42,346 bases of DNA from Candidatus Kaiserbacteria bacterium (GCA_016204805.1 JACQKA010000044.1:1-42346); one strand, 5' to 3'; positions 15,206 through 32,481 are shown, counted from the first letter of the stretch. Program-made: numbers and translations. Notes: generated by a model from the letters alone, not told the origin.

Positions 15206-15283
15206 GAGGGTGAGATCGTCTGCAGCGCTCCATCCGGGGTGGAGTGCGTCGTGAGCCCCCTCATGTTGAACGATCTCACCCTC
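15206..15283. repeat. Long-stem element E6: 14-bp perfect inverted repeat enclosing 50 nt, upstream of mnmA
   Basis: gagggtgagatcgt (15206-15219) pairs with acgatctcaccctc (15270-15283). Inner 8-bp hairpin gcgctcca/tggagtgc with loop tccgggg. Confidence 0.75.
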
Positions 15284-16377: not shown

Positions 16378-16505
16378 ACCCTGTGAATAATGGCCGACAA
16401 TGCGCATCCTTTCGCGTATCATTATGGATATGCCCATACACCTATTCGCGCCTAGGCGTTCTATGATATTTTTCCTGACGAGTTCAATACCGCACGTCTT
16501 TCTGC

Positions 16506-16961
16506 ATGAACATGATTATCAGCATAAGCGCCGCGGCACAGCCGCAAGGCGCGAATAGGTGTACGGGTATGCTGGTTCGCCTCACACTGTTCACTGTAAC
16601 TGCGATCGCCATCGCCTATGCCGCACATATGTTTTTCGGGAGCATCATTTTCGCGGCGGCGGAAGAAGATGCGAGCGCCATCGTGCTCCGTGATATTTAT
16701 AAGAACGAACGGCATGAACTCTCCGGCATCGTCATGGTGCCGTCCACCTGCCACGATCTCACTGTGCGGGCAAAAGATATCGATGCGCGGAGCACCGCTA
16801 TCATCTTGGAAACGTGGGAACAACCATTTGCCAGTGCATGTGATAAGGCGCCGACACCGCGTGCCATCCATGTGACTGCATTCGGTCCGGAAGGACTCGA
16901 CCTGCGCGGCATGCAGGATGGCGCATGGGTGCCGCTTACCATCATCGAGACGCGTAACTAA
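16506..16961 (+). CDS. Hypothetical membrane-anchored protein
   Basis: One TM span (LVRLTLFTVTAIAIAYAAHMFFGSIIF). The start could be 16506 or 16569. Confidence 0.45.
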   Translation: MNMIISISAAAQPQGANRCTGMLVRLTLFTVTAIAIAYAAHMFFGSIIFAAAEEDASAIVLRDIYKNERHELSGIVMVPSTCHDLTVRAKDIDARSTAIILETWEQPFASACDKAPTPRAIHVTAFGPEGLDLRGMQDGAWVPLTIIETRN

Positions 16962-28234: not shown

Positions 28235-28441
28235 ATGAGCGAACCACGGGTTGTAGACGGCGTCGTTGAGGAGGCTCTCCCCAACACCCTCTTCCGTGTG
28301 AAGCTCGCTGATCAGACGCTAACGCTGGCGTATCTTGCAGGAAAGATGCGTATGAACCGCATCAAAGTTCTGGTGGGTGACACAGTGTCACTCCAGTTGG
28401 ATCCATACGGCGGCCGTGCCCGCATCATCAAGCGGATGTAG
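28235..28441 (+). CDS. infA: Translation initiation factor IF-1
   Basis: VEEALPNTLFRVKL...YLAGKMRMNRIKVLVGDTV..LDPY matches the S1-like IF-1 pattern. Confidence 0.9.
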   Translation: MSEPRVVDGVVEEALPNTLFRVKLADQTLTLAYLAGKMRMNRIKVLVGDTVSLQLDPYGGRARIIKRM

Positions 28442-28476
28442 AAAAATAAGGAGCTTGCGACTATATTTTTCTTAAT

Positions 28477-28578
28477 CCAGCCCCACTTTTGCTTTTGAAC
28501 GATATATGTATATAATGCGTCACATTCATCCAACCTTTTGTTTTTGCGTGAGTTGTTAGCATGCAAAAGTGTGGCTGG
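28477..28578. repeat. Long-stem element E2: 16-bp stem (one mismatch; 18 bp with flanks) enclosing 70 nt, between infA and rpmJ
   Basis: ccagccccacttttgc (28477-28492) pairs with gcaaaagtgtggctgg (28563-28578). The loop contains tgtatataat. Confidence 0.75.
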
Positions 28579-28626
28579 ATGTAAGAGCTTCTACAAGCTC
28601 GTTCGCACTCGATAAGAATCTCTAAC
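28579..28626 (+). promoter_or_regulatory. Leader L1 immediately upstream of rpmJ (paralogous to L2)
   Basis: atgtaagagcttctacaagctcgttcgcactcgataagaatctctaac-ATG. Contains an ATG-TAA start-stop and the hairpin gagctt/aagctc. Confidence 0.6.
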
Positions 28627-28752
28627 ATGAAGGTCAAAGCATCGGTTAAAAAAATGTGTCCGCAATGCCGGATCGTACGACGCAGGGGGTATCTGCGCGT
28701 TATTTGTACGAACCCGAGCAAGGGTCCGCGCCATAAACAGCGTCAAGGTTGA
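28627..28752 (+). CDS. rpmJ: 50S ribosomal protein L36 (41 aa, below the ORF-track cutoff)
   Basis: My own translation: [41 protein letters not shown]. This is the canonical L36 zinc-ribbon pattern. Confidence 0.9.
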
Positions 28753-28790
28753 TGCAATTGTATGAGTGCAACGAATAACAATTGCTCAAC

Positions 28791-28884
28791 CCCGCACTTT
28801 CTTACGAAATTTGAGTTAATACCAAAAATGTGCATAATCTTCGTACTATGGTAATTGATCAAAAACAACGTAAGAAAGTGCGGG
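28791..28884. repeat. Long-stem element E3: 16-bp perfect stem enclosing 62 nt, between rpmJ and rpsM
   Basis: cccgcactttcttacg (28791-28806) pairs with cgtaagaaagtgcggg (28869-28884). The loop contains tgtgcataatc. Confidence 0.8.
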
Positions 28885-28930
28885 ATGTAAGAGTTTTTAA
28901 GCTCGTTATCACTCGCTAACAATCTCTAAC
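28885..28930 (+). promoter_or_regulatory. Leader L2 immediately upstream of rpsM (paralogous to L1)
   Basis: atgtaagagtttttaagctcgttatcactcgctaacaatctctaac-ATG. 43 of 51 aligned columns are identical to L1 by hand alignment. Confidence 0.6.
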
Positions 28931-29311
28931 ATGCGTATCTCAGGCATCACACTTCCGGACAACAAACGAATGGAGATCGCACTCACGGCGGTATTTGGTA
29001 TTGGCCGTCCGCGGGCGCACACGATTCTTAAAGCAGCGGGCGTTGATTTCGGCAAGAAGCCGCCGGCTGTGACCGCGGATGAAGAGGTAGCGATTCGCAA
29101 AGAGATCGAGAAACTCACCATCGAAGGTGACCTCCGGCGCCGGGTATCCATGCAGATCAAACACCACAAAGATATCAATTCGTACCGCGGCTCGCGCCAC
29201 ATGAAGAAACTCCCCGTCCGTGGCCAGCGCACCCGCACCAACACCCGCACCGTACGTGGCAACGTCCGCAAGACTATGACGTCGGGCAAACGTAAATTGG
29301 AGAAGACCTAA
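28931..29311 (+). CDS. rpsM: 30S ribosomal protein S13
   Basis: MRISGITLPDNKRMEIALTAVFGIGRPRA...YRGSRHMKKLPVRGQRTRTN. Confidence 0.95.
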   Translation: MRISGITLPDNKRMEIALTAVFGIGRPRAHTILKAAGVDFGKKPPAVTADEEVAIRKEIEKLTIEGDLRRRVSMQIKHHKDINSYRGSRHMKKLPVRGQRTRTNTRTVRGNVRKTMTSGKRKLEKT

Positions 29312-29325
29312 ACGCGCGGGAGCGC

Positions 29326-29455
29326 GGCCGTGACCTCCCTGAAAAAGACTGAAGCTTGGGCAATTCCCGTTTTGCCCAAGAGCGAAGCGATTGGGTGCAA
29401 AACGCAATCCTGTAAGGGACGCCCTCGAGTGGTCTTTTTCAGGGAGGTCACGGCC
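29326..29455. repeat. Long-stem element E4: 24-bp perfect stem enclosing 82 nt, between rpsM and rpsK
   Basis: ggccgtgacctccctgaaaaagac (29326-29349) pairs with gtctttttcagggaggtcacggcc (29432-29455). Confidence 0.85.
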
Positions 29456-29466
29456 AAGTGTATTTG

Positions 29467-29475
29467 TGGCATAAT
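29467..29475 (+). promoter_or_regulatory. Extended -10 box TGgCATAAT upstream of rpsK
   Basis: tggcataat lies 12 nt after the E4 3' arm and 61 nt before ATG 29537. Confidence 0.35.
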
Positions 29476-29536
29476 ACTCTTGATTTTTTATTGATATCCT
29501 GTATTATTGCGCAACTACACAAATTTCGATTGAGTT

Positions 29537-29971
29537 ATGGGAAAAAAGCGTATTATCCGGAAATCGGGCGGTACCGTTGATGCGGGGCTTAAATCTCGTT
29601 CACTTGCCCGCGGCATCCGAAAAAACGTTGGTTCTGCAACACTCTACGTGCAGGCTACTTTCAACAACACTAAAGCGGTTCTGACCGATCAGGGTGGGAA
29701 TGCGATCGCATGGTCATCGAGCGGTAGCCTCGGATTCGCAGGCGCCAAGAAAGGCACACCGTTTGCCGCAGCGAAAGTAGGCGAGCTCATCGGTGACAAA
29801 GCTATCCAAGCGGGTGTCGCCGAAGCAGCGGTCGTCATCCGCGGCATTGGCGCGGGCCGAGAGGCGGCAGTCCGTGCCTTTTCAGGCAAGGGCATCACCA
29901 TCACGCGTATCGCTGACGAAACACCTGTTCCTCACAACGGCGTGCGCCCGCCGCGTGCGCGCCGTATCTAA
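29537..29971 (+). CDS. rpsK: 30S ribosomal protein S11
   Basis: ATLYVQATFNNTKAVLTDQGGNAIAWSSSGSLGF.GAKKGTPFAA...DETPVPHNG.RPP..RRI. Confidence 0.95.
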   Translation: MGKKRIIRKSGGTVDAGLKSRSLARGIRKNVGSATLYVQATFNNTKAVLTDQGGNAIAWSSSGSLGFAGAKKGTPFAAAKVGELIGDKAIQAGVAEAAVVIRGIGAGREAAVRAFSGKGITITRIADETPVPHNGVRPPRARRI

Positions 29972-30621: not shown

Positions 30622-31587
30622 ATGTTCGACTATCATGTTACGTTGCCGTCAAAGCCCAAGGTCATTTCGGAGGAAGGCAAGAGCGGTACCTATGAGATCG
30701 ACGGTCTCCACCCAGGATATGGATTCACGCTGGGCAATTCTCTGCGTCGCATCATCCTCTCGTCTTTGCCGGGTGCCGCGATCACACAGGTCAAGATCGA
30801 CGGCATCAAGCACGAATTTTCGACCATCGAAGGCGTCAAGGAGGACGTAGTTACGCTTTTGCTCCACCTCCGTCGCGTTCGCGTGCGCCTCTCGACCGAC
30901 GAGCCGCAGACCTTGAAGCTCAAGATAAAGGGTCCCAAGACCGTGACCGCATCGGACATCGAAGCGCCGGGCCAGGTAGAAATTTTGAATCCGGATCAAT
31001 ACATCGCGGAAGTTTCCGGCAAAGCGACATTGGATATCGAAATCACCGTCGAGCGCGGTCTCGGCTACCTTCCGAAAGAAGCGGTTCAGAAAGAGCGCGT
31101 TGACATCGGTATCATCCCGCTCGACGCGACATTCTCGCCGATCCGCCGCGTGAACTACGAAGTCGAAAACATGCGCGTGGGCGACCGTACTGATTACAAC
31201 CGTTTGCGCATGTTCATCGAAACCGATGGCACGCTTACGGCGCGCGAAGCACTTGAACGTTCGATCGAGATCATGATCCACCAGCTCCGCGCTATCGTTG
31301 GCTTCAAGGAAGAGGAGTTGCCGGCCGCTGCGGAGGAAGAGGCAGTTACGGATTCTGACCGCAAGGTAGACGAAAAGGCGGACATGGAAGCTCTCAAGGT
31401 GCGCATCTCTGAATTACAGCTCTCGATACGTGTTATCTCCGCCCTTGATGGCGCGAGTATCCGCACGATCGGAGGCCTGGTGCGCAAGCGCGAAGACGAC
31501 CTCCTCTCTATCGAAGGCTTGGGCCAGAAAGGACTTCAGGAAATTAAAAGGGCGCTCTCTAATTACGGTTTGACGCTCCGCCCGTAA
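30622..31587 (+). CDS. rpoA: DNA-directed RNA polymerase subunit alpha
   Basis: GYGFTLGNSLRRIILSSLPGAAIT in the N-terminal domain. C-terminal domain ELQLSIRVISALDGASIRTIGGLV. Confidence 0.95.
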   Translation: MFDYHVTLPSKPKVISEEGKSGTYEIDGLHPGYGFTLGNSLRRIILSSLPGAAITQVKIDGIKHEFSTIEGVKEDVVTLLLHLRRVRVRLSTDEPQTLKLKIKGPKTVTASDIEAPGQVEILNPDQYIAEVSGKATLDIEITVERGLGYLPKEAVQKERVDIGIIPLDATFSPIRRVNYEVENMRVGDRTDYNRLRMFIETDGTLTAREALERSIEIMIHQLRAIVGFKEEELPAAAEEEAVTDSDRKVDEKADMEALKVRISELQLSIRVISALDGASIRTIGGLVRKREDDLLSIEGLGQKGLQEIKRALSNYGLTLRP

Positions 31588-31594
31588 GTAGCTT

Positions 31595-31948
31595 ATGAGG
31601 CACCACAAAAAAGGCCGCACATTCGGACGAGTGAAGAAGCAGCAGACTGCTCTTTTGCGCTCGCTCACTCGCTCTCTTGTGTTGCGCGGCAACATCACCA
31701 CGACCGTCGCCAAGGCGAAAGAAATGCGCCCATATGTGGAGAAATTGGTAACCATCGCAAAAGCAGATACATTGCAGTCGCGCCGGGCACTCGAAAACCG
31801 TCTCGGTAATGCACGCGATGTGGTAAAGAAGCTCCACACGGACATTGCACCGAAATACGCAAAACGCTCCGGCGGATACACGCGTATCACCCGCCTCGGC
31901 AAGCGCGGCGCACGCAAAGCAGAAGAGGCCAAAATAGAATTCGTATGA
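31595..31948 (+). CDS. rplQ: 50S ribosomal protein L17
   Basis: MRHHKKGRTFGRVKKQQTALLRSLTRSLVLRGNITTTVAKAKEMRPYVEKLVT. Confidence 0.95.
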   Translation: MRHHKKGRTFGRVKKQQTALLRSLTRSLVLRGNITTTVAKAKEMRPYVEKLVTIAKADTLQSRRALENRLGNARDVVKKLHTDIAPKYAKRSGGYTRITRLGKRGARKAEEAKIEFV

Positions 31949-32481
31949 CAAGAACCGACCCCAAAAATAATGGCGTAGCGAGGGCGCTTCCGCCCGAGCG
32001 AGACGCCGTCGCGGAGAACGAGGCATATCGGGATATGTCGAGTTCGAGCGACAAGTCGCAGCCGGGCGGAAGCGACCGCAGTAGCCAAGCACACACAGTG
32101 TCGAATAAAAATGCGATTATTTTTGGGGTCGGTTCGCGAACCCACACTATAAATGCATCAGGCAAGAAATTCGGACGCGTCGCATCGGAGGCTGCTAAAG
32201 CGCTCATGGGCAAAATGCGCACAGACTACACGCCGAACAAACCGTCGGGTGTCTTGGTCGAGATCACCAACGCAGGCAATTTGGACATCGCACCTATTAA
32301 GAAGAGCGATGTCATCTACAAACGCTATTCCGGCTATCCGGGCGGTCAGCGGGAGGAGTCACTTGGCGCGCTCCTGCCGCGCCGCGGAATCTCGATCGCA
32401 TTAAGGAAGACCATCGAGCGCATGTTGCCAAGGAATTCGATGCGCAAAGACCGTATGAAGCATCTTTCAATCAAAGAATAA
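31945..32481 (+). CDS. rplM: 50S ribosomal protein L13 with an unusual ~65-aa N-terminal extension
   Basis: The L13 core starts at THTINASGKKFGRVASEAAKALMGKMRTDYTP. There is no in-frame ATG/GTG/TTG just upstream of the core. The in-frame ATG candidates are 31945 (ATGA overlap with the rplQ stop) and 32035. Confidence 0.8.
   Translation: MTRTDPKNNGVARALPPERDAVAENEAYRDMSSSSDKSQPGGSDRSSQAHTVSNKNAIIFGVGSRTHTINASGKKFGRVASEAAKALMGKMRTDYTPNKPSGVLVEITNAGNLDIAPIKKSDVIYKRYSGYPGGQREESLGALLPRRGISIALRKTIERMLPRNSMRKDRMKHLSIKE
31952..32135. repeat. Long-stem element E5: 21-bp perfect outer stem plus 12-bp inner stem, lying inside the 5' extension of rplM
   Basis: gaaccgaccccaaaaataatg (31952-31972) pairs with cattatttttggggtcggttc (32115-32135). 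Inner stem cgcttccgcccg / cgggcggaagcg. Apex catatc-ggg-atatg. Confidence 0.85.

Follow-up and report, generated by a model that had tools for sequence, protein, structure and literature searches.

A family of three-hairpin RNA modules between stop and start codons in Kaiserbacteria-type bacteria

In a 42,346-nucleotide stretch of DNA from a Candidatus Kaiserbacteria bacterium (GCA_016204805.1 JACQKA010000044.1:1-42346; hereafter the window, meaning the whole stretch that was analysed), the spacers between the genes infA, rpmJ and rpsM are two copies of a large family of cis-acting RNA modules on the sense strand, each built of three hairpins that we call H1, H2 and H3. In ultra-small, Kaiserbacteria-type bacteria of the Candidate Phyla Radiation (CPR), this module replaces an intergenic spacer that is normally tiny, and it reaches from the stop codon of one gene to, in most aligned members, the base directly before the start codon of the next. 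The family is apparently undescribed.

Two window copies and their family

The genes of the region run infA (28235-28441), rpmJ (28627-28752), rpsM (28931-29311), rpsK and rpsD, then rpoA, rplQ, rplM and rpsI, with the first three assigned by gene calls and by Pfam as IF1, L36 and S13. A first-pass annotation of the window had proposed that unusually long spacers of 185 nt (infA-rpmJ) and 178 nt (rpmJ-rpsM) hold a duplicated structured module with similar leaders; we recovered both lengths, found the same module in both spacers, and saw the leader similarity again with a repeat finder as 35 nt at 89% plus 20 nt at 85% identity. The same program placed the long stem of the first spacer at 28475-28492 and 28563-28580 (18-nt arms, 94% complementary, 70 nt between) and that of the second at 28791-28806 and 28869-28884 (16 bp perfect, 62 nt between), such that the 16-bp stem claimed for each spacer is exact in the second, whereas the 16-mer given for the first includes one C.U mismatch. 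Folded as single sequences, both spacers formed three hairpins, at -50.9 kcal/mol for infA-rpmJ (z = -3.1) and -58.5 kcal/mol for rpmJ-rpsM (z = -6.7), with 0 of 200 shuffles as stable in each case. The parts of the two copies are as follows.

28440..28472, + strand: module 1 H1, starting inside the infA stop codon TAG (28439-28441); seen as inverted repeat, in the minimum-free-energy fold and in family covariation
28475..28580, + strand: module 1 H2, with 17 of 18 arm positions paired around an AT-rich 70-nt interior; repeat finder and fold
28581..28626, + strand: module 1 H3, GUAAGAGCUUCU.../...AAGAAUCUCUAAC; family covariation, RNAalifold and fold
28750..28788, + strand: module 2 H1, starting at the rpmJ stop codon TGA (28750-28752); fold and family covariation
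28789..28886, + strand: module 2 H2, arms 28789-28806 and 28869-28886 around a 62-nt interior; repeat finder and fold
28887..28930, + strand: module 2 H3, with G28887 paired to C28930, the base directly 5' of the rpsM AUG (28931-28933); covariation, fold and RNAalifold

The H3 helix of module 1 ends in the same way, with G28581 pairing C28626 directly 5' of the rpmJ AUG (28627-28629). Both copies align with the family over all three helices and score 48.4 and 41.7 bits with our covariance model R1, a model that handles long H2 interiors poorly and misplaces H1 and H2 in the window copies; across the 42-kb window it found only these two known copies.

Evaluating relatives, we found that the best matches to the S13 protein of the window were 60-70% identical (closest ~70%) and all came from metagenome-assembled genomes of Candidatus Kaiserbacteria, Paceibacterota or Parcubacteria, while the exact protein had no match on record; we therefore take the window to come from a CPR bacterium without a close sequenced relative. 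Across 80 related rpsM loci (L001-L080), with the genomes sampled as pieces of ~12 kb, the spacers of the gene cluster were mostly 2-40 nt, and a subset of genomes had spacers of 100-300 nt at varying positions, holding long stems that recur between genomes (e.g., ACCCAGCACCTTT/AAAGGTGCTGGGT). A hidden Markov model (HMM) of the leader found copies around rpsM in 12 of the 80 species-level genomes, including seven in L043 and six in L009, and a metagenome scan with a pattern for the H2/H3 junction (covering GGGTGTAAG and CTAANCTC) recruited 120 contigs, 84 of them confirmed by the HMM. The first-pass annotation had named a lack of homologous modules in relatives as grounds for abandoning its proposal; what we found instead were 141 hits representing 121 distinct copies in Kaiserbacteria/Paceibacterota genomes and metagenomes, 108 of which could be parsed into parts. 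Many of the contigs L081-L200 begin or end less than ~100 nt from a module, as expected if repeats break assemblies. Other long spacers of the cluster (in L006, L033, L049, L052, L060, L078 and others) carry different recurrent stems that the leader HMM missed, ATCCCGTTAGAAGT/ACTTCTAACGGGAT and AAGCACGAAATCCGAAA/TTTCGGATTTCGTGCTT, which may be diverged or sister families.

To evaluate pairing in the family, we scored the three-hairpin structure on 77 aligned members, with shuffles and slid partners as controls; H2 interiors were cut out before alignment and H2 arms were found by complementarity. The results were these.

Cells paired: observed 86.1%; shuffled 67.0 ± 0.5%; partners slid 33-47%
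Pairs changed on both sides: observed 30 of 40; shuffled 25.7 ± 1.4; partners slid 13-22
Covariation score: observed 0.447; shuffled 0.140; partners slid 0.064-0.161

Covariation in the family is thus strong, and the proposal that pairing is under selection, made earlier from the two copies, is carried by the family as a whole. Nor did the module resemble anything catalogued, as had also been suspected for r-protein leaders: an Rfam 15 scan of the whole window at gathering thresholds returned two tRNAs only, and a permissive scan (E <= 10) of 28380-29600 returned only sub-threshold chance matches to miRNA and snoRNA families. A tRNA-like fold was likewise not seen, with ARAGORN placing tRNAs in the window only at 819-976 and the module having no closing acceptor-like stem, and a full-text literature search found no description of the module.

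Structure of H1, H2 and H3

H1, a hairpin of ~36 nt, has its first base at the stop codon of the upstream gene or no more than 3 nt away from it. Its stem exists in three or more versions that can replace one another, among them AGAAAAAUA/UAUUUUUCU, which module 1 carries beneath an apical part G-GA-GC-[UU]-GC-GA-C, and AGAAnUUGUU/ACAAnUUCUU, and the lower stems are ~90% paired when each version is read in its own register; the stem of module 2 is GCAAUUGU/ACAAUUGC, with the apical part AU-GA-GU-[GCA]-AC-GA-AU. The apex is formed by tandem G.A (71/77) and A.G (76/77), two covarying pairs (C-G to U-A, G-C to A-U) and a three-base loop that is mostly GNA, giving a C-GNA-G-type triloop above the tandem mismatches. 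Upstream of H2 in L017, L088, L009 and L014 we observed a third, longer version, AAGGGCUUGUC-[inner hairpin]-GACAAACCUU, in place of the usual 36-nt hairpin, from which it follows that the H1 position tolerates replacement.

H2 begins one base after H1 and is closed by an A-U pair plus three C-G pairs (ACCC...GGGU), a closure that in module 2 is replaced by A-U and C.A before 16 perfect pairs. Above the closure, nine pairs are wholly different between sequence classes yet still paired, with 10 of 13 pairs changing on both sides. The stems are 12-25 bp long across the family, a range that, like the 17 of 18 and the perfect 16 bp of the window copies, corresponds to the roughly one to two helical turns expected of an RNase III stem. 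The tip accepts unrelated sequence of 4-121 nt: interiors measure 4-53 nt in 41 of the 108 parsed members (at most 32 nt in 39 of them) and 70-121 nt in the other 67, most often 70-83 nt. In the 19 members of the ACCCGCC class (e.g., L090, L096, L104, L124, L139), position 8 is C.A (10), U.G (8) or U.U (1) and never Watson-Crick, suggesting that a wobble geometry is conserved.

H3 follows H2 without a gap (GUAAGA...) and comprises about 15 pairs, with compensatory versions AGAG/CUCU, AGAU/AUCU, AGUU/AACU and AGCG/CGCU, A.A mismatches in 77/77 and 75/77 members, and an internal loop of U.C (76/77) and C.U (77/77), above which lie two further covarying pairs and a small loop. When RNAalifold was run without a supplied structure, it recovered H2 and H3 and added pairs G71-C118 and U72-A117, meaning that the H3 helix ends at the base directly before the AUG. 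Pair 71-118 is GC in 68 of the 77 members, CG in 3, AU in 2 and GU in 3, the CG and AU compensations at the helix end being supplied by members that read CUAAG...CUAAG or AUAAG...CUAAU. In most aligned members the helix thus ends at position -1 (0 nt from the AUG), and in the rest 2 nt before it. Two smaller claims of the first-pass annotation do not hold across the family. The start-stop ATG-TAA that it saw at the head of each leader reads GTGTAAG, CTAAG or ATAAG in most members; it marks the H2/H3 junction and is no conserved mini-ORF (open reading frame), with GTAAG at the start of H3 conserved, but within the covarying helix; and the local hairpin gagctt/aagctc, although present in the window, pairs in 72.4% of family cells against 71.8% in shuffles (94 of 500 shuffles as good), its bases belonging to the long-range H3 helix.

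Several other structural candidates were rejected. A rod in which H1, roughly the reverse complement of H3, would pair with it has an outer helix paired at no more than noise level (43.6%), and of its pairs only the four invariant ones at the junction fit. A kissing contact of the apex of H1 (GAGCGAAGCGA) with that of H3 (CTCGCTTCGCTC) was also considered, but in the changes we inspected G becomes A in both partners, which does not compensate, and the two apices are better explained as hairpins of their own. A boxA reading of CTCGTTAAGAA was dropped since its bases lie in covarying H3 pairs; a small ORF from an ATG in H1 fails because the other H1 variant has AAGGAG there and the variable H2 breaks the frame; and a hammerhead-type three-way junction has neither a conserved junction core nor a closing stem.

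Gene context, start codons and other structured spacers

Placement relative to genes was strict. Directly after 114 of the 121 copies comes an ATG-initiated ORF of at least 30 amino acids, the remaining 7 being cut by contig ends, and all 114 assessable copies face that ATG; contig L117 has two copies on opposite strands, each facing its own gene, so orientation follows the gene. On the other side, 86 of the 108 parsed members have an ORF of 60 codons or more whose end lies no further than 90 nt upstream of H2; the stop-to-H2 distance is most often 34-37 nt, close to the length of H1, so that the stop codon falls at the foot of H1; most of the other 22 follow promoter-like or terminator-like sequence. 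Upstream of nusA in L142, L175 and L163, we observed a promoter-like TTGACA...TATACT, then a GC hairpin with a T-run resembling a terminator, then the module, an arrangement that may be an attenuator.

The genes downstream of 64 sampled copies belong to 77 Pfam families. They include many r-proteins, RpoA, EF-Tu, NusA, DnaK (HSP70), Hsp20, SecY and MreB, as well as DnaA, DnaB, SSB, the small chain of ribonucleotide reductase (RNR), PGK, ArgG, Map, Adk and a pilus ATPase, and the modules mostly precede abundant or highly expressed housekeeping genes.

As the first-pass annotation had stated, no Shine-Dalgarno sequence precedes rpmJ or rpsM. Relatives without the module (among L001-L080, at the infA-rpmJ, rpmJ-rpsM and rpsM-rpsK junctions) have A/T/C-rich spacers of 2-40 nt that also contain no Shine-Dalgarno sequence, so its absence is normal for the lineage; a few of the window genes do have clear Shine-Dalgarno sequences. 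Of the 41 window genes, 13 (rpoA at 30622 among them) have a TAnnnT box, often with TGn before it, that ends 6-7 nt 5' of the start, against a background elsewhere of ~0.7 per position. Boxes so placed are the signature of leaderless transcripts and indicate that these are widespread. Insertion into a tiny spacer would by itself account for the module abutting the stop codon. The strict contact of H3 with the AUG is also kept in copies that follow promoters, and so calls for a functional explanation.

Beyond the two copies, we catalogued other structured elements in the window. The closest in layout lies in the 225-nt spacer between rpsM and rpsK.

29313..29520, + strand: analogue in the rpsM-rpsK spacer, made of a small GC hairpin, a long stem and, 16 nt short of the AUG, a third hairpin

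Its long stem is 24 bp (29326-29349 / 29432-29455, 100% complementary) around a structured 82-nt interior, the spacer folds at -105.9 kcal/mol (z = -8.55), and a -10-like TGGCATAAT follows the long stem. The spacer shows no sequence similarity to the family and scores only 11.7 bits with the covariance model (E = 0.78), and we treat it as an analogue with the same three-part layout, not as a demonstrated member. At the rplQ/rplM junction (31945-32160), the rplM ORF, as read from its ATG, contains in its 5' part a very stable rod (23-bp arms 31952-31974 / 32113-32135 plus inner stems; -104.4 kcal/mol, z = -9.2). The L13 proteins of relatives have no more than 4-8 residues ahead of the conserved T(H/Y)TIDA, so translation of rplM may really begin at the in-frame GTG at 32098; alternatively, the rod may have been inserted in frame, adding ~55 residues. 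Further long inverted repeats, each of unique sequence, lie in or beside other intergenic regions at 2017-2151, 16430-16570 and 15206-15283 (22-24 bp, 92-100% complementary and 91-93 nt apart, and also 14 bp with 50 nt between). It seems characteristic of the spacers of this genome in general to carry long stems that enclose ~50-140 nt.

Possible functions and known systems

Weighing these observations, we judge it somewhat probable that the module acts as cis-acting punctuation of polycistronic mRNA, serving processing, stability and the presentation of start codons independently of Shine-Dalgarno sequences. The H2 duplex, the base of H3, or both, would be a structure-specific processing site separating cistrons, and the processing may be of the RNase III type. 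After the cut, H1 and H2 would shield the 3' end of the upstream message. H3 would have one of two fates: it could protect the new 5' end and present the AUG with no need for a Shine-Dalgarno sequence, or be trimmed off so that the AUG itself becomes 5'-terminal. Transcription from a promoter within H2 would yield the same H3-AUG 5' end. Each abundant housekeeping gene would in this way be expressed from a stable message of its own, in an organism whose translation apparatus already depends on starts that are leaderless or have no Shine-Dalgarno sequence. Recognition by a protein is suggested by the conserved non-canonical motifs and by the position in the ACCCGCC class of H2 that is almost only C.A or U.G. 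In another reading, translational coupling, a ribosome that reaches the stop codon at the foot of H1 has to melt this hairpin and could in doing so help H3 to open.

Several points weigh against punctuation. We infer every step of it, the hosts being uncultured, and initiation should ordinarily be hindered by a stable helix that reaches -1 of the AUG, an odd arrangement for highly expressed genes unless the helix is cut or melted. The H2 stems fall into a few sequence classes conserved across species, more than a plain RNase III duplex needs, and the resemblance of H1 to the reverse complement of H3, along with patchy presence among relatives, suits a spreading DNA element. Sampling contributes as well: the invariance of the columns covered by the recruitment pattern comes partly from selection of the members, and the 96% pairing of H2 is partly by construction given how its arms were found, although the exchange of whole H2 stem sequences at a fixed position beside H1 is not.

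A sharper version of punctuation would make the module a bacterial counterpart of mitochondrial tRNA punctuation. A structure-specific endonuclease would cut at the 3' foot of H3, between -1 and the A of the AUG, turning internal cistrons into leaderless mRNAs, the kind already preferred by the ribosomes of this lineage, and leaving the excised H1-H2-H3 on the upstream message as a 3' stabiliser. Such a cut fits the end of H3 at or near -1, the invariable ATG start and a genome rich in leaderless-type promoters, and we nonetheless hold it to be rather unlikely.

We assign a similarly small chance to a mobile or self-spreading palindromic DNA element (a miniature inverted-repeat transposable element (MITE), REPIN-like or PATE-like, possibly read as single-stranded DNA hairpins) that colonises operon spacers, with the RNA structure as a by-product. 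Whether the module is present varies patchily from one related genome, or one spacer, to the next, several similar copies can stand side by side in one genome (e.g., the seven in L043), discrete H2 classes are common to many contigs, many contigs break at the module, H1 is roughly the reverse complement of H3, and minus-strand HMM hits fall on H1; the H1 apex GCGAAGC with C-GNA-G loops is, moreover, the classic ultra-stable DNA mini-hairpin. A short spacer in L008, TAAGAATCTCTCATG, resembles the last 14 nt at the 3' end of the module and may be an excision scar or a precursor. An element of this kind does not, however, account for 114 of 114 assessable copies pointing at the directly following ATG (the divergent L117 copies included), for the fixed spacing of H3 to the AUG, or for the strongly non-random set of downstream genes. 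Its ends are also not kept complementary (the 5' strand of H1 against the 3' strand of H3 stays at the noise level given above), H1 and H3 each keep a distinct consensus, and we saw no target-site duplication, the flanks being a stop codon and an ATG.

It is likewise improbable, in our estimation, that the module is a translational operator or sensor of a growth regulon, in which a trans-acting protein or a small ligand at the conserved G.A and Y.Y internal loops of H1 and H3 would open or close a start-occluding H3 and so co-regulate genes for ribosomes, chaperones and replication. The invariant non-Watson-Crick motifs in both hairpins, the span of H3 from -1 to about -45 and a gene set like that of a growth-rate regulon all speak for this. 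Few conserved nucleotides are unpaired, however, leaving no obvious ligand pocket, and no protein emerged as a candidate binder; genes of metabolism and of pili also have the module in front of them; and its gain and loss between close species argue against an essential regulon signal.

Decidedly unlikely is the promoter cassette or transcript-isoform switch proposed by the first-pass annotation, in which inverted repeats would enclose an internal promoter, read-through RNA would form H2, promoter-initiated RNA could not, and two 5' untranslated region states would result. The -10-like boxes that it reported in both loops are present (TGTATATAAT at 28507-28516 in module 1; a promoter-like TTGAGT-16-CATAAT at 28811-28838 in module 2), but a local promoter scan was not above shuffles (4 vs 2.1 ± 1.8). 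Among long H2 interiors, sense-strand sigma-70-like sites occur in 19/67 (5.8 ± 2.2 in shuffles) and extended -10 sites in 13/65 (4.8 ± 2.2 in shuffles), although antisense matches are somewhat raised too (10/67). A switch of this kind cannot define the module when 41 of 108 interiors are 4-53 nt long and the 39 shortest, at 32 nt or less, are too short for a promoter, and the strong conservation lies in H1, the base of H2 and H3, not in the interior; a promoter in the H2 tip is plausibly a frequent but optional passenger. An invertible promoter (inverton) was rejected as well, with interiors of only 62-70 nt in the window, even shorter ones in the family, and one orientation only observed.

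Hardly credible, finally, is an autoregulatory leader bound by S13, S4 or L36, for even though both window copies belong to the infA-rpmJ-rpsM cluster, which in E. coli holds the alpha-operon leader bound by S4, an r-protein-specific site is ruled out by the same module preceding dozens of unrelated genes of at least 77 Pfam families (HSP70, MreB, EF-Tu, SecY, DnaA, DnaB, PGK and RNR among them), nothing matched in Rfam, its r-protein leader families included, even at E <= 10, and the nearest relatives have no module at these positions.

The rules of gene expression in CPR bacteria, which are uncultured and have tiny genomes, are almost unknown, and a conserved, strongly covarying module that reaches from stop to start codon ahead of genes for ribosomes, chaperones, secretion and replication would be a main organiser of gene expression in a major lineage. 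It offers a sequence-defined handle both on the translation of internal cistrons without Shine-Dalgarno sequences and on a possible cutting of operon mRNAs into leaderless units. The modules also affect annotation, since they fragment assemblies and can be mistaken, when translated, for N-terminal extensions.

Compared with known systems, the module shares with the REP, BIME and REPIN elements of proteobacteria a multi-copy, palindromic nature, a place in operon spacers and discrete sequence classes. REP and BIME hairpins in mRNA affect its stability and, near a stop codon, the translation of the upstream gene. Unlike these elements, the module is always oriented to the downstream gene, ends its 3' helix at -1 of the AUG and consists of three distinct hairpins, each with conserved non-canonical motifs; no association with RAYT is known for it, within the ~12-kb genome pieces, whose gene content was not surveyed. 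REP and REPIN elements also have a conserved GTAG head; the conserved GTAAG of H3 belongs to a covarying helix. Correia or NEMIS elements, the MITEs of Neisseria, are similarly intergenic inverted-repeat elements of ~100-150 nt; they can carry promoter boxes, and their co-transcribed copies fold into long hairpins cut by RNase III. They have true terminal inverted repeats, a TA duplication and either orientation, whereas the module has non-complementary ends (43.6%), no duplication and a strict orientation.

The intercistronic RNase III stems of the phage T7 early region, of rRNA operon stalks and of rplL-rpoB are likewise long duplexes whose loop content is irrelevant. Cleavage there leaves an upstream 3' hairpin and a new downstream 5' end, cleavage of the module being only predicted, and the module differs in having H2 stems down to 12-13 bp that are sequence-conserved by class and in its extra conserved H1 and H3. 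Mitochondrial tRNA punctuation, too, places structured RNA exactly between coding regions, and its excision yields leaderless mRNAs for a translation system that uses leaderless starts, of which the window shows a signature; the module is not tRNA-like, however, and a cut at the H3/AUG boundary is hypothetical. The alpha-operon S4 leader (Rfam Alpha_RBS) stands before rpsM in the same gene cluster, but it matches the module neither in sequence nor in structure, and the module is not confined to rpsM. It is strict orientation, three hairpins and contact with the start codon, taken together, that set the module apart from REP/BIME elements, Correia elements and T7-type RNase III sites.

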